IMG/VR virus record: IMGVR_UViG_2839610755_000002
Origin: a virus
Taxonomy: Duplodnaviria; Heunggongvirae; Uroviricota; Caudoviricetes
DNA length: 64,000 nucleotides
Direction: 5' to 3' (one strand)
Shown here: positions 459 to 59,410 of the stretch, in pieces
Position numbering within the stretch: the stretch's first letter is position 1
Layout: each line of letters opens with the position of its first letter
Translations under genes and position numbers: made by a program
The notes under the pieces: generated by a model
What the model was told of the DNA's origin: nothing
The model's input: the letters and a program-made list of their open reading frames with translations, nothing else
Databases searched by the model: none

Positions 459-3189
<2,731 letters not shown>

Positions 3190-3255
3190 TTAATTAGAAT
3201 AATTCGCATCGTGTTTGAACGGAATTTAACACTAGTCACTTGTTAAGGATTACCA

Positions 3256-4119
3256 ATGAACAAGCTATCTATGGGGGTGTTTCGCTGTTCAAGTGTCAGC
3301 GAAATATTGAAATACATTAGGGCAATAACATCTCACCGGGCGCCGATTAAATACGGCGTGGAAAAGGTGGAAGGCAAAAGCTATGACCGACTGCGCCGGG
3401 AGGCGAATCAGAAGGCGATAGATTTGCTTAATTCGCTGGTGGACGGCGCGACACTGACAGATGAACAGCGCCAGATCCTGGCTGGGTACACCGGTGAAGG
3501 TGGCATTGGCGGGGCCGTCTCCGAATATTACACACCAAAGCCGATCGCTGAAGGCGTCTGGGAGATCATGAAGCTCTACGGCGCGGACGTAGGTAACACT
3601 CTGGAACCATCGGCGGGAACCGGCGTTTTTAATGAGACAAAACCGGTTGGTACGGTGATGACCGCGACTGAGATCAGCAGTGTTTCCGGTCGTATAAACC
3701 AGTTGTTACACCCGGAAGACAGCGTACAGATTTCCCCGTTCGAACAGCTGGCTATAAGCACGCCTAACGATTCATTCGACCATGTTGTGGGTAACGTTCC
3801 GTTCGGCGGTCGTGATAACACACGCAACATCGATAAGCCTTACGCAGAAGAAACGGACATGGGTTCTTACTTCATGCTCCGCATGCTGGACAAGATAAAG
3901 CCTGGCGGATTCATGTGTGTGATTGTGCCGCCGTCCATTGTTTCAGGTTCAAACATGAAGCGGTTACGCCTGCGCCTATCCCGTAAAGCTGAATTTCTTG
4001 GCGCTCACCGCTTGCCTACCGGTACTTTTGACGCAAACGGGACCAGTACGGTCGTTGATGTGGTGCTGATGCGTAAACATCCGGCAGAGATGGCTGAGAA
4101 AATCCCCCCTGGTGGATGA
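3256..4119 (+). CDS. darB: DarB N-terminal segment (N6-adenine methyltransferase domain), ends at a frameshift
   Basis: MTase motif I-like LEPSAGTGVF and motif IV-like VVGNVPFGG. The ORF stops at 4117-4119 just after a C6 tract while the next frame continues. Confidence 0.75.
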   Translation: MNKLSMGVFRCSSVSEILKYIRAITSHRAPIKYGVEKVEGKSYDRLRREANQKAIDLLNSLVDGATLTDEQRQILAGYTGEGGIGGAVSEYYTPKPIAEGVWEIMKLYGADVGNTLEPSAGTGVFNETKPVGTVMTATEISSVSGRINQLLHPEDSVQISPFEQLAISTPNDSFDHVVGNVPFGGRDNTRNIDKPYAEETDMGSYFMLRMLDKIKPGGFMCVIVPPSIVSGSNMKRLRLRLSRKAEFLGAHRLPTGTFDANGTSTVVDVVLMRKHPAEMAEKIPPGG

Positions 4120-13788: not shown

Positions 13789-14820
13789 CTAATCACCATC
13801 TTCCAGCAGGCGCACCATTGCCCCCGTTTCACTATCCAGATTACGGATATAGTTCATGACAATATTTACGTTGGTCCAGCCACCAGCTTGCATGATCTCC
13901 GGTATTGAAACTCCGGCGCGGGCCATATCTCGCGCGGCTCCGACACGGGCACTGTGTCCAGACCAGGCCAGGTACCTCTGACCAGAGTCATCCTTAGCCC
14001 CGTAAATCAATCGGTGAGTTGCTTCAAAAATCCCTTCCAGGGCGCGAGTTGATAGCTGGCTGGTGGATGATGGCGAGGCAACACCATTTTTTCTGACCCG
14101 GCAAAACAAGTAGTTATTCGGATCATCAGCCACACCAGAGACAGAAATCCATCGCTCGACCAGTTTAGTTACCCCCAGGCTAAGTGCCTTCTCTACACCT
14201 GCGGTGCTAACCAGCGTTTTCGTTCTGCCAATATGGATTAACATTCTCCCACCGTCAGTACGTGAGATATCTTTAACCCTGATCCTGGCAATTTCGGCTA
14301 TACGTAACAGGGTGTTATAAGCAATCCCCAGAAATGCCAGATTACGTATATCCTGGCAGCGATCGCTATTTTCCATGAGTGAACGAACCTGGTCGAAATC
14401 AGTGCGTTCGAACGCTAGTGCCTGTTTTGCACGTTCACCGGCATCAACGTTTTCTTTTCGGATCCGCCGCATGACCAGTGAAACAGCGTTGCTGTCACTT
14501 GGTCGTGGCAGCCCGGACCGCCGATGAAGCATGTTTAGCTGGCCCAAATGTTGCTGGATAGTTTTTACTGCCAGACCGCGCGCCTGAAGATATAGAAGAT
14601 AATCGCGAACATCTTCAGGTTCTGCGGGAAACCATTTCCGGTTATTCAACTTGCACCAAGCCGCCCATGACCGGCAAACGGACAGAAGCATTTTCCAGGT
14701 ATGCTCAGAAAACGCCTGGCGATCCCTGAACATATCCATCAGGTTCTTGCGAACCTCATCACTCGTTGCCTCGACCGGCAATGCAGGCAAATTTTGGTGT
14801 ACGGTCAGTAAATTGGACAT
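13789..14820 (-). CDS. cre: Cre tyrosine recombinase
   Basis: 343 aa, MSNLLTVHQNLPALP...MVRLLEDGD; near-identical to the canonical Cre sequence from memory, with a few substitutions. Confidence 0.97.
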   Translation of the reverse strand: MSNLLTVHQNLPALPVEATSDEVRKNLMDMFRDRQAFSEHTWKMLLSVCRSWAAWCKLNNRKWFPAEPEDVRDYLLYLQARGLAVKTIQQHLGQLNMLHRRSGLPRPSDSNAVSLVMRRIRKENVDAGERAKQALAFERTDFDQVRSLMENSDRCQDIRNLAFLGIAYNTLLRIAEIARIRVKDISRTDGGRMLIHIGRTKTLVSTAGVEKALSLGVTKLVERWISVSGVADDPNNYLFCRVRKNGVASPSSTSQLSTRALEGIFEATHRLIYGAKDDSGQRYLAWSGHSARVGAARDMARAGVSIPEIMQAGGWTNVNIVMNYIRNLDSETGAMVRLLEDGD

Positions 14821-15644: not shown

Positions 15645-15854
15645 ATGGCTTTCATTCAACCAACCATCGACGACGTTAGACATTGCTCTAACGCTTTATC
15701 TGTAGACCCTGCCGAAACCGACGCTGCCCGCGCCATTGCTGAACACTACTCAAAGATATCCAATCAGGAGTACCGCATCACCCAAGACGACCTGGATGAC
15801 CTCACTGACACAATCGAATATCTCATGGCAACTAACCAGTTAGACTCACAATAA
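15645..15854 (+). CDS. coi: Coi, C1 inactivator
   Basis: 69-aa ORF directly upstream of c1; size and position as P1 Coi (recalled). Confidence 0.75.
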   Translation: MAFIQPTIDDVRHCSNALSVDPAETDAARAIAEHYSKISNQEYRITQDDLDDLTDTIEYLMATNQLDSQ

Positions 15855-15964: not shown

Positions 15965-16816
15965 ATGATAAATTATGTCTACGGCGAACAACTGTACCAG
16001 GAGTTCGTCAGCTTCAGGGATCTCTTTCTAAAAAAAGCTGTTGCACGCGCCCAACACGTTGATACAGCCAGCGACGGTCGTCCTGTACGCCCGGTTGTCG
16101 TTCTACCGTTCAAAGAAACTGACAGCATTCAGGCTGAAATTGATAAATGGACTTTAATGGCGCGGGAACTGGAACAGTACCCAGACCTCAATATCCCAAA
16201 GACTATTTTATATCCAGTGCCTAACATCCTTCGCGGTGTGCGTAAGGTTACAACTTATCAGACAGAAGCTGTGAACAGCGTCAACATGACCGCTGGCCGC
16301 ATTATTCATCTGATTGATAAGGACATTCGCATCCAAAAAAGCGCGGGGATCAATGAGCACAGTGCGAAATACATAGAGAACCTGGAAGCAACAAAAGAGC
16401 TAATGAAGCAGTACCCGGAGGATGAAAAATTCCGTATGCGCGTACACGGCTTTAGCGAAACAATGCTGCGCGTCCACTACATTTCCAGTAGCCCTAACTA
16501 CAATGATGGTAAATCAGTTAGTTACCATGTGCCACTGTGTGGCGTGTTTATCTGCGATGAAACTCTCCGTGATGGAATTATCATCAACGGTGAATTCGAA
16601 AAAGCAAAATTTAGCCTTTATGACTCCATAGAACCGATCATCTGCGACCGCTGGCCGCAAGCAAAAATATATCGCCTGGCAGATATTGAAAATGTAAAAA
16701 AACAAATTGCCATCACTCGCGAAGAGAAAAAGGTTAAGTCAGCCGCATCAGTTACGCGCAGCCGTAAAACCAAGAAGGGGCAGCCAGTAAACGACACCCC
16801 CGAAAGCGCGCAATAA
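15965..16816 (+). CDS. c1: C1 master repressor of lysogeny
   Basis: 283 aa, MINYVYGEQLYQEFVSF...; matches the recalled P1 C1 sequence and length. Confidence 0.9.
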   Translation: MINYVYGEQLYQEFVSFRDLFLKKAVARAQHVDTASDGRPVRPVVVLPFKETDSIQAEIDKWTLMARELEQYPDLNIPKTILYPVPNILRGVRKVTTYQTEAVNSVNMTAGRIIHLIDKDIRIQKSAGINEHSAKYIENLEATKELMKQYPEDEKFRMRVHGFSETMLRVHYISSSPNYNDGKSVSYHVPLCGVFICDETLRDGIIINGEFEKAKFSLYDSIEPIICDRWPQAKIYRLADIENVKKQIAITREEKKVKSAASVTRSRKTKKGQPVNDTPESAQ

Positions 16817-16821
16817 ATTAT

Positions 16822-16846
16822 GCCCGGCATCAACCGGGCATTCTTC
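16822..16846. terminator. stem-loop GCCCGG-catcaa-CCGGGC after c1
   Basis: Inverted repeat immediately after the c1 stop; the same hairpin recurs at 45243..45268. Confidence 0.4.
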
Positions 16847-16848
16847 CA

Positions 16849-17966
16849 TTATTCAGCTGCCACCGGTTTTAACAAGCCAGCATCGAGCAGTTTACGCGTC
16901 AACCACTGCTGGCCTTTACCCGTTAATTGAGGCGTCAACCGTATCTGGTAGCCATCTTCATCATCCAGCACCACTTCTTTCACCGTGAAATACCCCGCGT
17001 TGATGTACTGCTGGAACGGCACATTTTTACGTCCACCGGACGCTATCAGGATGCCGTTCTCCCGTAACCAGACAAACAGCGCGTTTTGCTTAAGTCCAAC
17101 AACCTTTGCAAAATTCCCAATCAGGATCCCTTTAGCTACTGATACCCGGTCGGCAAAATCGACTTTAGGAGCGGCGGCCACCAGCTGCTGATTTAGCTGG
17201 TGGGCTTTCTGTTCCAGAAGTTGCTTTTGTTCAGCCAGTTCGGCAGCCAGGCGTAGGGCTTCAGGAAGCGTCTGGGGGATTGCGATCGGTTGCTGTTCTT
17301 TTTGTCGGAAGTAGCTGTCTTCCAGTTTTTCAAAGAATGCCCATGCCTGATCGGTTTCGAGCATTTTAGCGTGGCGGGCTGCGCCGCGTTCTGTCCAGAG
17401 GGGAGTGAGCGAACATTGCGAGCAATTTTTACAGAGTAGTTTAAAGCTACTCTGTGCTTCAACTCGCGCAATGATTCTCCTTCAACTTTGAAAAAGTGCT
17501 TCCCTTCAACAAAGCGTACTTTGTTCTCATGATGATTTTGGCGAATACGGATTGTTTCTGTCCCATACCCTCTAGCAAGAGTCTCGGTTGTCACTACACG
17601 CACTCCCTGCCATTCCAGAACGGGAATTTCATCAGACTGATTCTGAACAACCACCAGCTCCGATTCCTGAACTGAAGGTGCATGAATTTTTTCTGATTTA
17701 ACGTTAGTTGCTTTCATTCTGTGTGCCTCCTTGCGTGCTTCGGCTGCGACGGTTGCGTAATTCAGATGACCCTGTTCGAGCAGGTATTCGCGGATATCAG
17801 ACAACAGGATACGGTGAACCGCGTTCTTGTCCTTTCTCCGGTAAAGTTGTTTGGTGATCATGAAGTAGTTGGCAATAACGCCTGGTATATCCCTGGTACT
17901 GATACAGGCAGTGTGCTGTTCAATTGCCTCGATCATCTCTTCACGGGTGACTAATGACGTTCTCAT
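16849..17966 (-). pseudogene. antirepressor-like gene, copy A (shared N-terminus, ORF6N/Rha-like middle, KilAC-like C-terminus), split across two frames
   Basis: Track ORFs 17193..17966 and 16849..17364 overlap in different frames. C-terminal part has the KilAC-like motif NVPFQQYINAGYF; first 77 aa are near-identical to the 45268..46302 protein. Confidence 0.5.
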
Positions 17967-18184
17967 AGTCCCTCCTGAGCAGAAGCGTTAACAGGGAGGC
18001 ACCAGTAACTGAGAGAATTGCGTGAATCAGTGGAAAAACGGGCAGAGAAAATACATGGGGCGTCAGGAAGCTGAGAGCGGGCCTCATCTTCTGTTGGTGC
18101 AATAACGAAGTGATAGTGACGTTTTTGGCAGGAGTAAAAGCGCCAGATAAATTCAGGATGAGTTGGGGTAGGGATAGTAGCCAT
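17963..18184 (-). CDS. Icd-like small protein, copy A
   Basis: 73-aa ORF (MATIPTPTHPEFIWRFYSC...) with AGGAGG upstream; overlaps the antirepressor start by 4 nt (ATGA). Arrangement and size resemble P1 icd-ant (recalled). Confidence 0.5.
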   Translation of the reverse strand: MATIPTPTHPEFIWRFYSCQKRHYHFVIAPTEDEARSQLPDAPCIFSARFSTDSRNSLSYWCLPVNASAQEGL

Positions 18185-18502
18185 ATTGGCAGCCTCCTTA
18201 GACGTTGGTATGTAACCACCGCAGAAGAGACCAATCTTGCTGGCGGTGGACTGTACGGAGTTGGCCTTACTGGCGTCCAAGGTAACCAGCCTACCCGAAG
18301 GTAGCCCCATACAGCCCACCATTGTAGAGGTGTGCGTGTACGCCGATACAAAAAAAGACGCGAGCGGCGTCTGTATCGCCTTAGACTTAAGCGGGAGGCC
18401 AATCCCGGCACCCGTTTTAATGAGGTGCCTGATAAGCATAAACCGAAAATGCCTCAAGGCGCAAGAGGTCAGGTTCAATGTAACATCGGTAGCTAAAAAA
18501 CA

Positions 18503-18519
18503 CAATTTATTAGAGCAAA
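18503..18519. promoter_or_regulatory. C1 operator-like site upstream of icd/ant-like module A
   Basis: CAATTTATTAGAGCAAA, 15/17 match in reverse orientation. Confidence 0.55.
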
Positions 18520-18522
18520 TAT

Positions 18523-20007
18523 TCATTCATTAAGCCATGCCAGAGCTTCATCAACCTGCGCTTCGTCTTCGACGCTAAGCACTTCATCCTGGGGAACATA
18601 ATCAGCCAGCATAGCGAAACAATATGTATCCCAATGGTCTGGTGAGTGCAGGTTGAGTTTTTTCTTCATATCCTCCTTACTCATCACTTTCCATTGACCT
18701 GCGGAGTTAATCCCTACAGGGATTTTCGACGCTTCCTCAATAGTTTCATTACCCTTATCCAGTCTCATACGACCAGATTTTACGGCCTCTGCGGCTTGAA
18801 CGTTGGCATAAGCACGTTTATCAAAGTACAGGCTCTTATCTTCACGGCTATGCATCTTTTTACCCCAGCGTATACGCTGTACGGTAATACCATAATACTC
18901 GTACATCAGATCCGCCGTTGCTTTACCCAGGCCATCGCCGTCTATCGCTATGGTGATATTTGGGAATCGCTCAGGATTACATTCTGCGAAAATTTTGGCG
19001 GCAAGCTGCGTTTCTGTAACGTCTGTGTATTCCAGCATTCGATAGTTGATTACACGGCGTTTATTTCGCTGGCCGGACACCATCATGATATTGATAACGG
19101 ACTTATCCCGTCCCGTACCACCAGCAACGTCCACACATGCAAGCCAGCCCCATCCTTTTGCAATCTTGACTTTCCGCCGCGTTGCACGTTCAACCTCATC
19201 ACGTCCAAGAAGGAAGCCATCCTGTGATTTAGGGAATAGGCCGCGTACCTTAATCATGTACATAGGGTTATCGCGCCCGCCGTACTCCGCCAGCTTCATT
19301 TTGATAAATGCTGGCGTTACCAGCGGTGATTCCTCACTGTTAAGCGTGATCGCCGTATAAACGCCATCAGGGTTACCAGGACGCTTGGCCAGTTTATGGT
19401 GAGTATCGTAGAAATAGCCGCTTGGGCGTGTAGGCTGTGACAGTAATAAGATGCGGTTATCCTGTCCGGTAAGAGCACCGGTGATGATACCGAAAGCTCT
19501 ATCACTGACACCGGAGGCTTCATCGATAATATACAGAAGATGATCTGCGTGTTCACCGGCGAGAGCTTCTTCACTTCCCAGACGAAAGCCCTTCGGTACT
19601 ACAGTCCATACACCTTTACCAGTAACCTCATAGAAAGCGGTTTCTGTCAGAACAAAATAATCAGCAAGCCATGGGAAACGGCTGGTGGCAGTAGCCCAGT
19701 TTATCTTGATGTACTTGAATATACCGGTCATTACCTGCTGAATTTTGTTCGCAACGATAATGGCTCGGGCACCGGGATACATGATTATGAACAACATGAT
19801 CATGATAGAAGTCATGTCTGATTTCCCGGTACCGTGACCAGACGAAACAGATGTCTTGCTACCCTGTTCCTGCACAGACTCAATAATCAGATCCTGCTGC
19901 CAGGTAGGTGTTTTGCCGAACAAAACATCAGCGGCCGCAATCCAGTCATAACGATATAGCGCCACCAGCTCGCGCCAACGTGGATCCGTTACGCAACTTC
20001 TGGCCAT
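18523..20007 (-). CDS. pacB: terminase large subunit PacB
   Basis: 494 aa with a Walker A-like [10 protein letters not shown]; adjacent to pacA. Confidence 0.8.
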
Positions 20008-21200
20008 TAATCATCATCCCCGTATAGCTTGCGGGTAACTTCTTCGTCTTCCTCCTCGTCTTCGTCCAGGTCTTGTTCCAGCCATGGGTCGTTTGATGCA
20101 CCTTCAGTATCAACATCTCCATAACCGCCTGTATCAACGATATCGGCGATTTCTTCCCTACGCTGCTCAATCCACAATGCGGCATCCGCGCGGCGGTTGG
20201 CGGCCCGTTCTCGCGCAACTTTGTCCAGATCTTCAAGAGAAGGGCCACCGACGGCTGTTTGCCTTTCCTCATCATCGGTATTGGTCTTAGGAGCACGCAG
20301 ATCGGCTTTGATTTGCTCCAGCATCAGGGGCGGCACTTTCCCGCCATGCGCCTCGATGAATTCAGCTGCTTCCAGCACTGACCAGTTATTTTCACGCTTT
20401 CGTTCGTATGCCAGCTTAACAATGCCAGCTTGCCCCATAGATAAAGCGTGCTTTTCCGCCTCCCGGCTTTCTTTTCGATAGTTATTCCGGATGCTGTAAA
20501 TGGTGTTGATCAGGCTGCTTATCTGCGCGGAACAGCTGTTTAGCATGCTCGCGATACGATATTCAGGCGGAGTCCCTTCATCATCGTCTTTTTGCTGATC
20601 GCGCATTTCCTGCACCAGACGAATACACGTATCCCTGGCGTTCTCCAGCATAAGGAGATGAGAAAGAGACTTTTCCAGAAGAGTGGTTTCCAGAACATCG
20701 GCCCCGGACCGACGCAACATAGCGCGCGCGGCCTTCCGCGCTTCAACGTTATCTATCAGGTAATCGCCAGCTTCGAATTCAAAGCGTTCACCATCATCAT
20801 CCAGGGTGTCGCGTTCCAGGCGATCACGTAAGGTCCGGTGGGCGCGGGTGATCACGTCATGATCATCAGAACGATCATTTATGCGCTTATTTTGGCGCTT
20901 CGCATTCTCGACTGCGGCACTGACAACGGCATTAACCCTTTGTTTTTCCGCTATTTCAGCCGCAATGTGATTACCTGCATGTTGATCATTAGAGTGATCA
21001 ATGATCATGCTTTTTAGTGGCTTCCTGACTGGCTTATTTGGCTTGCGGCTGTCCGCTGTCCTGGTGTCTTCTTTGAAGGCACGGAGATAACGACGTGCAG
21101 TATTAGGGTTAAGATTAAACTCGGCGGCATACTGTGCGATGGTGTAACCACCATCTCGCGCCAGGCGAGCAAAATTCTTCTTGTGATCGTCCCAGGTCAC
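20007..21200 (-). CDS. pacA: terminase small subunit PacA (contains pac)
   Basis: 397 aa with acidic C-terminus; contains clustered TGATCA hexamers typical of the P1 pac site. Confidence 0.8.
20849..21008. other. pac: pac packaging site (two clusters of GATC-containing TGATCA/G hexamers)
   Basis: TGATCAC/TGATCA/CGATCA at about 20849-20877 and three TGATCA at about 20984-21008, roughly 110 bp apart within the 5' part of pacA. Confidence 0.75.
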
Positions 21201-49542: not shown

Positions 49543-49618
49543 TGGTGGCCCCTACCGGACTTGAACCGGTGACCGTGCGATTATGAGTCGCCAGCTCTAA
49601 CCACTGAGCTAAAGGGCC
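49543..49618 (-). tRNA. tRNA with CAU anticodon (Ile2/Met-type; ileX-like acceptor stem)
   Basis: Hand-folded cloverleaf: acceptor GGCCCTT/AGGGGCC, anticodon loop CTCATAA, T-loop TTCAAGT, encoded CCA; coordinates approximate. Confidence 0.7.
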
Positions 49619-49645
49619 GGATTACTGCCAATTTTGCTTACGCTT

Positions 49646-50473
49646 TTATTTCACCGGAACAAACGGAACAGCGGTATTACTGGTCATATACTGCGGTAAT
49701 GTACCGTTCCATTTGTTGATCGCTTCCAAGTCCATAACACCGGGGTTCTGGCGCAGAGCTTCACCACGTAAACGAATGGCATCAGCTTCGGCCTGGGCTT
49801 TTGTGCGAATAGCATCAGCCTGTCCGGCAGCTTCCGCGCGCAGCATGTTGGCCTCTGCTTCACGTTGTTTGACCTCTTGCTCGCGTTGCAGGGTTTTTTG
49901 GTTTGCCGTGACTTTGGCGTTAATACTGTCAATAACTGTTGGCGGGTATTCTGGCTTACCTACATAAGAGAGGCTCATCACCTGAATGCCGATTGGCGTC
50001 ATTTCTTCCTGAATGTCTTTAAGGGCTGCATCAAGCAATTCAGATTTGCCACCGTCGATAAATTTGTCGGTGGTCATTTTGCTGGCTAATCGGTTCAGAG
50101 CATCTGCAACCTTCTGGCGTAGATCGGTATCAGTAATATCATCTACACCTTTGCGATAGGTCTGAAATACCGTTGTGACTTTTGCTGGATCAACCTTGTA
50201 GGCTACGCCGATGTGGTAACCAATGGTTGTTCCGTCGCTCATCTGGAAGCTGAACGGCTCATCGTATGTCTTCATTTGCTTAAAGGTCGGGAAGATATAA
50301 ACTTCAGTATTCAAGCCTGTCCAGTAGCGACCAACGCCAACTACTTCACCGATACCTTTATCATCCCCCAGCTTATTTACTTTGATCCCTACGTTACCTG
50401 GCTCTACCCGATCGCATCCGGTCAGACATAAAGAACCCAAAATAATCGCTGCACTAATCAACGTTTTTTTCAT
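49646..50473 (-). CDS. SPFH/band-7 family lipoprotein (Plp-like)
   Basis: Signal peptide with lipobox LTGC, then a prohibitin-like domain and Ala/Glu-rich coiled coil. Confidence 0.55.
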   Translation of the reverse strand: MKKTLISAAIILGSLCLTGCDRVEPGNVGIKVNKLGDDKGIGEVVGVGRYWTGLNTEVYIFPTFKQMKTYDEPFSFQMSDGTTIGYHIGVAYKVDPAKVTTVFQTYRKGVDDITDTDLRQKVADALNRLASKMTTDKFIDGGKSELLDAALKDIQEEMTPIGIQVMSLSYVGKPEYPPTVIDSINAKVTANQKTLQREQEVKQREAEANMLRAEAAGQADAIRTKAQAEADAIRLRGEALRQNPGVMDLEAINKWNGTLPQYMTSNTAVPFVPVK

Positions 50474-50690
50474 TAATTAATTTCCTGGTTTTTTCACGAA
50501 AAAAGACTACTGCGAAAGCCGGGTAAATGAGCGCGAGAAGGACTCCCAACAATACAAGTATTGTGCTGTTAGATGAGATCATATTTGGCAAAAGCCAAAC
50601 ATACAGAACCAGTGACACAATCAAACAGAGGACGGCATAAATATATAACCGCACCCATAGCGTTCGACATTTGTTCGGATTGTTCTGCAT
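50454..50690 (-). CDS. small membrane protein (Upl-like)
   Basis: 78 aa with two hydrophobic helices, overlapping the plp-like start. Confidence 0.4.
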   Translation of the reverse strand: MQNNPNKCRTLWVRLYIYAVLCLIVSLVLYVWLLPNMISSNSTILVLLGVLLALIYPAFAVVFFREKTRKLINEKNVD

Positions 50691-51563
50691 CCTCTCACTC
50701 CATTATTTAACGAATAAAAAAGCTGCGGTGCCGGGTTCCTCCCGGTGTCCTTTGGCTGGTTATCCACCGTGGACGTGGAAACAAGGAGAAATAATGGACA
50801 GATATAACCATTTCCCCGCGTGCGCTTAGCCGCATTCACCGCAACGGAAAGAGCATTCTTGGTGGACCTGTAGATTGGGATATGAACCCGTTACAGGAGA
50901 ATGCTCTTACCTGTTACGTGCTCCGTTTCGTGGAGCTAACGGCGGGTGATCAGACCGCACCAGACTGGACTTATTTCAGCGTTATGCTCATGCCAGAGAA
51001 TCAAACTGTGATGGTCGGTGCTGAACTCCGACACAGGGTTGTAGCAAGCCCCGCAAAGCGCGCACTACTGTAGTTGCGGCACATCAGCCTGTGCATTCAC
51101 CACAATGTTGAGAACACTGGTTGTCACGCGGCAACGCAACATTTATTCGTAGATTGGGATATGACCCCGTTACGCCAGTGTTCTCAACGTTGTAGTTGTT
51201 ATGCGTATTCTCTTACTAACCGCACACCAATACATTTCCCATCACGTTCATTTGTCTCGAAACGTGAATACTTAAGTTCGCCGTTAATAATCGCTGTTAC
51301 AACCCGTATCCCGTTAAACGCCCACATATTTCGCTCCATTTACACACATTACCAGTCGCCGGTTACGGTTCCGGCCAGGCCTCTTCCTCAACGGGGTGTT
51401 CTCCATACGGACTACCGTTTATTGGTCGTTCCTGCGGTTTATGTTGTGAAGCCAGATGCTTATCTTCTGGTTGCTTCTAAGATCTGCACTTCATCACAAC
51501 GGTAAGAGCACTCGATGCATTTAAGCCAGGCCCCATAAGGGAGAATGCTCTTACCTGTTATGT

Positions 51564-51639
51564 TGGTGCCGATTAACGGGATCGAACCGCTGACCATTCG
51601 CTTACAAAGCGACTGCTCTACCAACTGAGCTAAATCGGC
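51564..51639 (-). tRNA. tRNA-Thr (UGU)
   Basis: Hand-folded: acceptor GCCGATT/AATCGGC, anticodon loop TTTGTAA, T-loop TTCGATC, encoded CCA; coordinates approximate. Confidence 0.8.
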
Positions 51640-51643
51640 AATG

Positions 51644-51730
51644 TGGTGGGGAGTGATGGAGTCGAACCACCCGAGTCGCAATGACAGTAGATTTACAGTC
51701 TACCCCGCTACCCCTACGGACTAACTCCCC
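51644..51730 (-). tRNA. putative class II tRNA, Tyr-like (GUA anticodon, long variable arm)
   Basis: 87 nt: acceptor GGGGAGT/ACTCCCC, anticodon arm GTAGA-CTGTAAA-TCTAC, 15-nt variable arm, T-arm GGTGG-TTCGACT-CCATC, CCA. D-arm pairing is irregular. Confidence 0.45.
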
Positions 51731-51735
51731 TAAAG

Positions 51736-51810
51736 TGGCGATGGTGGGTGGATTCGAACTACCGACCAGTTGGTTAACAGCCAACTGCTCTACCGCTGAG
51801 CTACACCATC
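51736..51810 (-). tRNA. tRNA-Asn (GUU)
   Basis: Hand-folded: acceptor GATGGTG/CACCATC, anticodon arm GTTGG-CTGTTAA-CCAAC, T-loop TTCGAAT, CCA; coordinates approximate. Confidence 0.75.
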
Positions 51811-58196: not shown

Positions 58197-59087
58197 TCAG
58201 GCTGCCAGATCATCGTTTCCGATGGAAGCATAATAAGCTTTTTCTGCTTCTGCCGGAGGAGTATGGCCCAGCCTTCCCAGCAATCGTCGATTGTTATACC
58301 AGTCCACCCACGTTAGTGTGGCCAGTTCCACTTCTGCACGGTTTTTCCAGCTCTTACGGTGTATTACCTCCGCTTTGTAAAGACCATTGATGCTCTCAGC
58401 CATCGCGTTGTCATACGAGTCGCCTGTACTCCCTGTTGATGCCAGTAATCCGGCTTCTTTTAGTCGCTCCGTATAGGCCAGTGACACATACTGAGAGCCT
58501 TTATCGCTGTGATGGATGGTGCCAGACGGACGACGGGCCCACAACGCCTGCTCCAGCGCATCCAGCACGAATGTCGTTTCCATAGACGATGAGACCCGCC
58601 ACCCCACGATGTATCCGGCAAACACATCAATGATAAACGCCACATAGACGAAGCCCTGCCATGTGCTGACGTAAGTAAAATCAGCCACCCACAGCTGGTC
58701 AGGTCGTTCTGCCACGAACTGACGGTTTACGCGGTCGCCTGCGGCAACGGCTTTCCGGCTGATGGTCGTACGGACCTTTTTACCCCGGAGAACACCGGCA
58801 AGTCCCATAACCGCCATGAGACGTGCCACTGTACATCTGGCCACCCTGATTCCTTCCCGTAACAACTGACGCCAGACTTTACGCACACCGTACACCTGAT
58901 GATTTTCATCGTATACGCGCTGTATCTCTCTCTTCAGCCAGTCGTCGTGCTGCGCACGGGCACTGCGTTTATCCGGATGATGTCGCTGTTGCTGACAATG
59001 GTAATACGTTGACGGGGCAATATGCAGTTCGCTGCATACCGGTCCGACCCCGTACTGCTCACGCAGCTTATCCAGCAGTGGCATCAT
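58197..59087 (-). CDS. IS3-family transposase OrfB
   Basis: Identical to the 41784..42674 protein. Confidence 0.85.
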
Positions 59088-59410
59088 TTTTTCCAGAGGC
59101 GGTCGAACTCCGCCTTCGCAAAATAAGCGGAAGCCTGGCGAAGGATATCGTTACTGCGGCGCAGTTCACGATTTTCACGTTCCAGCTCTTTCAGACGCTG
59201 ACGTTCAGCGCTGGTGAGCCCACCATCACCGCCCCCGGTATCCCGCTCATGCTGGCGAACCCAGACACGCAGAGTCTCCGGCGTACAGCCAATCTTTGGG
59301 GCAATGGAACAAATTGCCGCCCACTGTGAGTCATATTCATCCTGACTTTCCAGAACCATACGAATCGCCCGCTGACGGACTTCGGGGGAAAAACGAGTAT
59401 TTTTAGTCAT
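59084..59410 (-). CDS. IS3-family transposase OrfA
   Basis: Identical to the 41461..41787 protein. Confidence 0.85.

Follow-up and report, generated by a model that had tools for sequence, protein, structure and literature searches.

Introduction

The immI region of phages P1 and P7 is an immunity switch of the c4-icd-ant type, in which a C1 operator is followed by the sites a1 and b1, the antisense RNA C4, the target a2 and, on the icd ribosome-binding site, the target b2; a 73-aa Icd reading frame then overlaps the antirepressor gene ant as ATGA, and ant itself contains a nested Ant2-type start. Here, we describe a region with the same order of parts that lies between the c1 and pacB genes in a 64,000-nucleotide stretch of viral DNA (the window; IMG/VR record IMGVR_UViG_2839610755_000002, Caudoviricetes), which is a P1-type (Punavirus) phage-plasmid prophage and has, in addition, a resident immI. 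The region, referred to below as module 2, is very probably a second, complete immI-type immunity module in which the antirepressor gene (ant-2) has been inactivated, and which is carried by P1-like phage-plasmids as an accessory cassette. It differs from P1/P7 immI in its place (between c1 and pacB, whereas the P1/P7 region stands beside sim/kilA-repL), in an IsrK-type leader that has an intrinsic terminator, in the specificity of its C4, in the ORF6N middle of its antirepressor and in the frameshift in ant-2.

Two further systems share parts of this layout. In P4, the small RNA CI, which arises by processing and shares its Rfam clan with C4, pairs with repeated targets (seqA/seqC) flanking it on the same transcript. 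CI prematurely terminates transcription of the replication genes, whereas C4 blocks the icd ribosome-binding site, and P4 is not known to carry Icd or Ant. The isrK-orf45-anrP region of Gifsy-1 in Salmonella resembles module 2 in that a full-length Rfam isrK match in the leader is followed by a reading frame coupled as AUGA to an antirepressor gene, but no C1-type operator or Icd homologue has been described in Gifsy-1. There, the IsrK RNA has a leaky terminator and precedes a short ORF that is AUGA-coupled to the antirepressor (Hershko-Shalev et al. 2016, PMC4825925). The region downstream of isrK also gives rise to a processed RNA of ~80 nt, and the short RNA reportedly acts in trans as an activator of read-through mRNA translation (PMC4825925). 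Hfq binding by IsrK and this trans activation have been described for Gifsy-1 only, and SeqA of P4 was named as a structural homologue of IsrK (PMC4825925).

Venturini et al. (PMC6906374) reported an ant insertion at the pacB-c1 site in RCS47 and pTZ20_1P, and for D6-like plasmids the presence of a second c4-icd region has been described (PMC6799933). RCS47 (FO818745/NC_042128), pTZ20_1P and JL22 carry the insertion at the same site as the window and with the same gene order, and the RCS47 Ant (371 aa) and the JL22 protein labelled 'Roi' (370 aa) are intact orthologues of ant-2; however, RCS47 and JL22 have other C4 specificities and other ORF6N alleles. In D6, the immI leader, its C4 and the start of icd (~20 codons) are of the IsrK-plus-C4 type seen in module 2, and the C4 loops and targets match those of the JL22 pacB-c1 module exactly, but the D6 region sits in its own immI context and has an unrelated, Rha-type Ant. 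The C4 and IsrK RNAs and the operator are unmentioned in the GenBank annotations of RCS47 and JL22 and in the passage of PMC6906374 on the insertion, and our search of the available literature returned no description of C4/IsrK RNAs, operator or specificity types at the pacB-c1 site. Against this background, the covariation of specificity and the repeated loss of ant-2 reported below are useful but incremental, and the existence of distinct C4 specificity types is, like that loss, partly new.

The pacB-c1 insert carries the parts of an immI-type switch

In P1 (NC_005856), the convergent pacB and c1 genes end at 93206 and 93231, leaving a spacer of 24 bp, whereas 1,706 bp lie between them in the window. 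The insert begins directly past the pacB stop codon, and its other end is formed by a G+C-rich hairpin (ATGCCCGGttgaTGCCGGGCAT, 16820–16841, minus strand, as are all features of module 2 given below) just before the c1 stop. This hairpin, which was returned by the terminator scan, lies between the ant-2 and c1 stop codons where alignment to P1 places a short CCATGCCGGATGG hairpin, and is likely a terminator for the convergent ant-2 and c1 transcripts.

An Rfam scan of the ~335-nt leader returned two RNAs at the gathering threshold. The first was an IsrK-family leader RNA at 18351–18428 (RF01394, 60.8 bits against a gathering score of 50), matched over its full length (model positions 1–77) and showing the three hairpins ending in an intrinsic terminator that define the family. 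The terminator-like hairpin at the end of this RNA (AGACGCcgctcGCGTCT plus seven T, 18349–18372), a 6-pair stem followed by the T run, was called inside the isrK match independently by the terminator scan; P1 and P7 immI have no leader terminator and show an alignment gap at that place. Site a1 (TTGGCCT, 18396–18402) lies in a hairpin loop of the IsrK-type leader and site b1 (GTCTAAGG, 18379–18386) in its linker, and a sub-threshold c4-a1b1 Rfam match (20.5 bits) overlaps the same leader. The second RNA, at 18239–18326, was a second copy of the C4-type antisense RNA (RF01695, 75.9 bits against a gathering score of 45; full length, model positions 1–87), with the b' loop CCTTGGAC at 18275–18282 and the a' stretch AAGGCCAA at 18261–18268. 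Its minimum-free-energy fold had the canonical three-helix C4 shape (-41.6 kcal/mol), as did the folds of all C4 sequences compared. The corresponding targets follow in the icd leader, with a2 (TTGGTCT) at 18228–18234 and b2 (GTCTAAGG) at 18196–18203, the latter overlapping the ribosome-binding sequence AAGGAGG of icd-2 at 18193–18199.

The icd-2 gene (17963–18184) is an intact 73-aa Icd-like reading frame (NCBIfam NF033153 phage_ICD_like, 49.8 bits, cut-off 25; RefSeq protein WP_000201261) that aligned with P1 Icd, and its stop codon overlaps the ant-2 start as ATGA at 17966–17963. At the other end of the leader, 3 nt past the pacB stop codon, the sequence TTTGCTCTAATAAATTG (18503–18519) matched the C1 consensus ATTGCTCTAATAAATTT at 15 of 17 positions, the two mismatches being the first and last base, and aligned with Oc4/Op51 of P1 and P7 immI. 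Sites with up to three mismatches to the consensus numbered 17 in the window, compared to 0.35 expected by chance, and the 16 further matches sit at positions typical of known P1 operator regions. The site at 18503–18519 is, on this sequence evidence, a putative C1 operator. The initial annotation, made from the sequence alone, had taken pacB and c1 to be adjacent in reference P1 with ~1.7 kb between them here, and had proposed a C1-operator-like site, a 73-aa ORF with a strong ribosome-binding site, its ATGA overlap with an antirepressor gene and an immI (c4-icd-ant) architecture; each of these proposals was borne out, the last by the Rfam C4, the IsrK-type a1/b1 leader, loop-target complementarity and the Icd homologue.

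Candidate promoters were proposed only via alignment with the annotated P1 promoters. The upstream candidate (TTGTGT-17-TACATT, 18477–18505) has a -35 element that overlaps the operator and occupies the position of P1 P2c4/P51a. The proximal candidate (TTGCGC-18-TATGCT, 18435–18464) occupies the position of P1 P1c4/P51b (TTGACC/TATAGT), and its -10 element stops 6 nt before position 1 of the IsrK match (Rfam isrK start at 18428).

As a comparator within the window we used the resident immI (45268–46853, minus strand), which comprises an operator (46837–46853), Rfam matches to c4-a1b1 (46721–46773) and C4 (46568–46653), icd (46299–46520) and an intact 344-aa ant (45268–46302). In RefSeq, a partial 'ash family protein' pseudogene is placed exactly over the IsrK-like/C4 RNA region of module 2 (~18209–18526, minus strand; RefSeq locus 3010–3327), an annotation that looks like a protein-model match on sequence that is really RNA-coding.

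C4 loops and their targets change together

Leaders from P1, P7, the resident immI, module 2, RCS47, JL22 and D6 were aligned, representing six variants as JL22 and D6 are the same. All of them share the P1 layout, with a1 and b1 upstream, b' and a' within C4, a2 downstream and b2 on the icd ribosome-binding site. Within each variant, the loop a' is complementary to both a1 and a2, and the loop b' to both b1 and b2. The a and b sites read TTGACAG and GTTAGTG in P1, TTAGCAG and GATTGTG in P7, and TTGACAG and GTACATG in the resident immI; module 2 has TTGGCCT (a1) and TTGGTCT (a2) with GTCTAAGG, RCS47 has TTGAGAC with GTCAAAGG, and both JL22 and D6 have TTGAGAC with GCAAAAGG. No other evidence speaks as strongly for selection on pairing in the RNA part of the module as this joint change of loops and targets at three sites per element.

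Predicted duplex energies followed the same pattern. Module 2 C4 gave -11.3 and -12.4 kcal/mol on its a1 and b1 sites and -8.6 and -13.9 kcal/mol on a2 and b2, respectively, and cognate duplexes in general were predicted at -8 to -9 (a) and -12 to -14 kcal/mol (b). The resident immI C4, in contrast, reached merely -2.5 and -3.5 kcal/mol on a2 and b2 of module 2, and cross-pairing between the two modules of the window was weak overall (-2.5 to -4.1 kcal/mol). Since loop and target change in a coordinated manner and specificity differs between the modules, the two switches are predicted not to cross-regulate and thus to be mutually independent.

The opposite possibility, that the whole module is inert recombination debris, untranscribed and with no role in immunity, appears unlikely. 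It draws on the weak promoter matches, on an ant gene that is dead here and hit by insertion sequences (IS) in at least two other plasmids, and on a 450-bp stretch that is 96.7% identical to the resident immI and shows recent recombination between the copies. However, covariation of loop and target at three sites each, across discrete types, is hard to explain without selection on pairing, and both icd and the operator are intact. In addition, the leader and C4 of the module 2 type are at least 98.5% identical in ~100 plasmids, the other types forming a separate band of 60–90% identity.

The resident immI also departs from the described types. Its C4 (46568–46653, within 46490–46773) has the a specificity of P1 (TTGACAG), but its b site GTACATG (loop CATGTAC) is neither GTTAGTG of P1 nor GATTGTG of P7. 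Because this b specificity matches neither phage, the resident region is, by its sequence, a third immI type at the canonical site.

Proposed mechanism of module 2

Under the mechanism that we propose, based on the annotation of P1/P7 immI, earlier work on c4/icd/ant switches and the work on Gifsy-1 IsrK (PMC4825925), transcription would start just past the pacB stop codon, from two candidate promoters, one overlapping the C1 operator and the other lying ~70 nt further downstream. The transcript would open with the IsrK-family leader, which would show the decoy sites a1 and b1 and partly end at its own terminator, and read-through transcripts would carry the C4 antisense RNA. Once processed, C4 would mask the icd ribosome-binding site through pairing of a' with a2 and of b' with b2; on the model of P1 immI, this block of icd translation would also halt ant through polarity and translational coupling at the ATGA overlap. 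Ant, once made, would inactivate C1, and the C1 operator would let a loss of C1 raise transcription. Our own analysis establishes the sequence features, the family memberships, the complementarity and its covariation between variants, and the existence and distribution of the frameshift, whereas the use of the promoters, the processing of the RNA, the repression of translation, polarity and the binding of Ant to C1 are steps that we infer from these related systems.

Several points weigh against module 2 as a working switch of this kind. Both candidate promoters are weak, each agreeing with 7 of 12 consensus positions, and a consensus promoter scan called no sigma-70 site for the module. Binding of C1 by an Ant with an ORF6N middle is a proposal for every member of the family. 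The role of the a1/b1 leader may be that of a decoy, of an IsrK-like activator or none, and the a1 and b1 sites of P1 are themselves annotated merely as 'putative' targets. Furthermore, the a2 and b2 duplexes of module 2 hold one G-U pair each, and the retained RNA part may just not have decayed yet rather than having been kept by selection.

In the window, what module 2 could still provide is limited to C4-based immunity, the leader RNA and Icd, without antirepression, because the RNA part and icd are intact while ant-2 is a pseudogene with a 1-nt deletion.

A 1-nt deletion inactivates ant-2

The ant-2 pseudogene (16849–17966) encodes a P1 Ant1-like N-terminus, an ORF6N domain (~17439–17621) and a KilAC domain (~16885–17190), with an Ant2-like internal start at codon 84 (17715–17717) preceded by AAGGAGG. 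As the initial annotation had observed, the reading frame is split: the upstream ORF (17193–17966) matched Pfam ORF6N (PF10543, 52.2 bits) and the downstream ORF (16849–17364), in a different frame, matched Pfam ANT/KilAC (PF03374, 108.5 bits). Alignment with the antirepressors of RCS47 (371 aa), JL22 (370 aa) and the E2 plasmid (372 aa) traced the split to a single base between 17402 and 17403 that all relatives compared have and the window lacks (coding strand, CACTC[A]CCCTC). Restoring this base gave a 372-aa protein identical to the intact WP_024235726, and ORF6N and KilAC are joined in one polypeptide both in the repaired ant-2 and in the intact protein of its relatives. Thus, the antirepressor that is intact in P1-type immI and in these relatives is broken in the window at 17402/17403. 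The deletion lies within the ORF6N domain, where it strips the conserved end (LWTERGA), cuts off KilAC and appends 66 out-of-frame residues.

A 71-base query spanning the deletion site was searched in complete-genome records. The deletion allele matched at 71 of 71 bases in exactly seven records, from seven different strains (O157:H7 F1273, O157:H7 TX 376-2, EH2252, EH031, UTAK-13, OkiPb01717 and O103:H2 CEC12044). These are plasmid records, mostly from Shiga-toxin-type or cattle-associated E. coli, that differ in strain, serotype, host and country but share the whole 2,001-bp stretch at 100% identity (one record slightly lower). Another 124 records had the same allele with the extra base, and each one that was translated gave an intact 372-aa Ant. 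RefSeq likewise labels ant-2 a 'frameshifted' pseudogene. By these sequence comparisons the 1-nt deletion is a genuine inherited lineage mutation, not a sequencing error, because the exact allele recurs in seven separate complete-genome records, and not a conserved programmed frameshift, because the deletion is absent from the 124 other records of the same allele. The initial annotation had left the choice between a decaying module and a programmed or erroneous frameshift; of these, decay fits, and for ant only, as C4, the leader and icd are intact, whereas the seven recurrences speak against an error and the 124 other records against a programmed frameshift.

Synthesis of full-length Ant through ribosomal -1 slippage is very unlikely. 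In this scheme, the deletion itself creates CUC CCC UCU, and tRNA-Pro slipping back one base at C-CCC would yield a full-length Ant that differs by one Thr-to-Pro substitution; no stop codon interrupts the downstream frame over the ~25 codons that precede the deletion, and a slip on the new CCCC run would restore the sequence ...SLPLWTERGAAR.... The site, however, lacks the canonical X XXY YYZ heptamer and does not occur in 124 of the 131 records of this allele, which argues against a conserved device; these 124 have no frame break, and RCS47, JL22 and E2 have a single ORF, so that no conserved slippery site or frame junction was found. No stimulatory downstream structure was evident either, though none was searched for, and any such product would amount to low-level leakage.

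We consider it highly improbable that the two halves act as separate proteins, a 257-aa N-terminal protein with ORF6N and a 171-aa KilAC protein from the ATG at 17364, even though both ORFs are open, each has a recognisable Pfam domain and P1 itself makes a nested, shorter Ant2. There is no ribosome-binding sequence upstream of the ATG at 17364 (CGCCACGCTAAAATG), and this ATG lies ~170 nt before the stop codon of the upstream ORF, so that translational coupling is not possible. The first half would, moreover, have lost the conserved LWTERGA end of ORF6N and gained the 66 out-of-frame residues. That the split is instead a sequencing or assembly error in a gene that is really intact is hardly credible. 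Indel errors do arise in such data: the near-identical phage vB_EcoM-673R5 (99.3%) shows a 1-nt gap at another place, 25 nt from the deletion and within a C run, and its annotation also breaks c1 and pacA into pieces. The deletion of the window, however, is the same in seven records, which originate from the USA and other places and were obtained from beef, cattle, veal and humans, and the missing base is an A between C's, hence no simple contraction of a single-base run.

Relative to the window, vB_EcoM-673R5 has one single-base gap in ant (17376) and two in the leader (18350 and 18393). This suggests that its assembly carries indel errors, and its ant gap was not relied on.

Inactivation of ant-2 beside a retained RNA part was also seen elsewhere. 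In pUTAK-8-2, an ISEc23 insertion removes the KilAC domain of ant-2, and in the G5 plasmid, ISSen4 is inserted after ant-2 codon 36; the icd gene and RNA region are kept in both. The E. coli 181.1 plasmid p3 was considered as a further case, but its translation is intact despite a fragmented RefSeq annotation and it was not counted.

Module 2 is a mosaic that shares sequence with the resident immI

The initial annotation had described an extra ORF6N segment in the middle of the antirepressor compared to the resident paralog. The ORF6N domain is indeed present, but it is no extra insert: the alignment showed that it replaces the unrelated middle third of P1 Ant, and the insert interpretation was rejected. 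On either side of it, repaired Ant-2 residues 1–86 and the C-terminal ~165 residues, which include KilAC, are near-identical to the resident Ant. At the DNA level, 17708–18157 is 96.7% identical to 46044–46493 of the resident immI, forming a 450-bp direct repeat with copies ~28 kb apart that spans the 3' part of icd and the first 86 ant codons in both modules, and 16812–17283 is 86.9% identical to resident 45233–45681. This 450-bp repeat probably offers a substrate on which the two switches could recombine or undergo gene conversion. The DNA comparison found no counterpart of the ORF6N segment or of the leader in the resident immI. The D6 Ant was rejected as a source of ORF6N since it shows no similarity to the module 2 protein (blastp E = 0.3); the D6-like parts are the leader, C4 and the 5' end of icd only.

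In pUTAK-8-2 (locus 1890–2500), the ORF6N ant allele of the window is combined with C4 loops and targets of the RCS47 type. Because this plasmid mixes the two, the specificity region and ant recombine independently.

Distribution and significance of the module

Scoring presence as at least 80% coverage of a 2-kb query, we found the module in 267 (approximately one-third) of the 816 PLSDB plasmids that matched the query, which are essentially the P1-like phage-plasmids. Of 5,426 complete E. coli genomes, 247 carried it. The module is a known, common and already annotated accessory cassette that is not peculiar to this genome. For the window itself the message is modest: the cassette is known and annotated, and its split gene is a pseudogene of an ordinary kind.

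Resistance and virulence genes in E. coli are commonly carried by P1-like phage-plasmids, whose immunity circuits set which relatives can coexist with, displace or induce one another. It is possible, though doubtful, that the pacB-c1 cassette serves as a swappable second immunity-specificity slot, and that lineages living as plasmids drop the antirepressor and keep an 'immunity-only' device. If this were true, at least three discrete C4/target types would be exchanged at the pacB-c1 site independently of the ant allele, and the slot would widen the range of superinfecting relatives that are excluded as well as that of resident prophages that can be overridden. Lineages mainly living as plasmids, such as this one associated with Shiga toxin-producing E. 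coli, would repeatedly lose ant by frameshift or IS insertion while keeping C4, the IsrK-type leader and icd. An additional immI switch that has an RNA specificity of its own would alter the heteroimmunity rules for about one-third of P1-like elements, and recurrent loss of its antirepressor would point to domestication toward stable plasmid life.

Neighbouring genes and other features of the window

Gene calling placed c1 at 15965–16816 (plus strand) and pacB at 18523–20007 (minus strand) on the two sides of module 2, followed by pacA at 20007–21200 (minus strand) beyond pacB; cre (13789–14820, minus strand) and coi (15645–15854, plus strand) lie beyond c1. Around the resident immI, Rfam returned two identical ALIL pseudoknot matches (121.5 bits each) at 41742–41858 (plus strand) and 59013–59129 (minus strand), inverted and ~17 kb apart. 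This pseudoknot serves IS3-family transposases as their frameshift element, and the two IS copies bracket the immI and tRNA region. Four tRNAs were found by Rfam in this region at 49546–51810 (minus strand), between the resident immI and the downstream IS copy.

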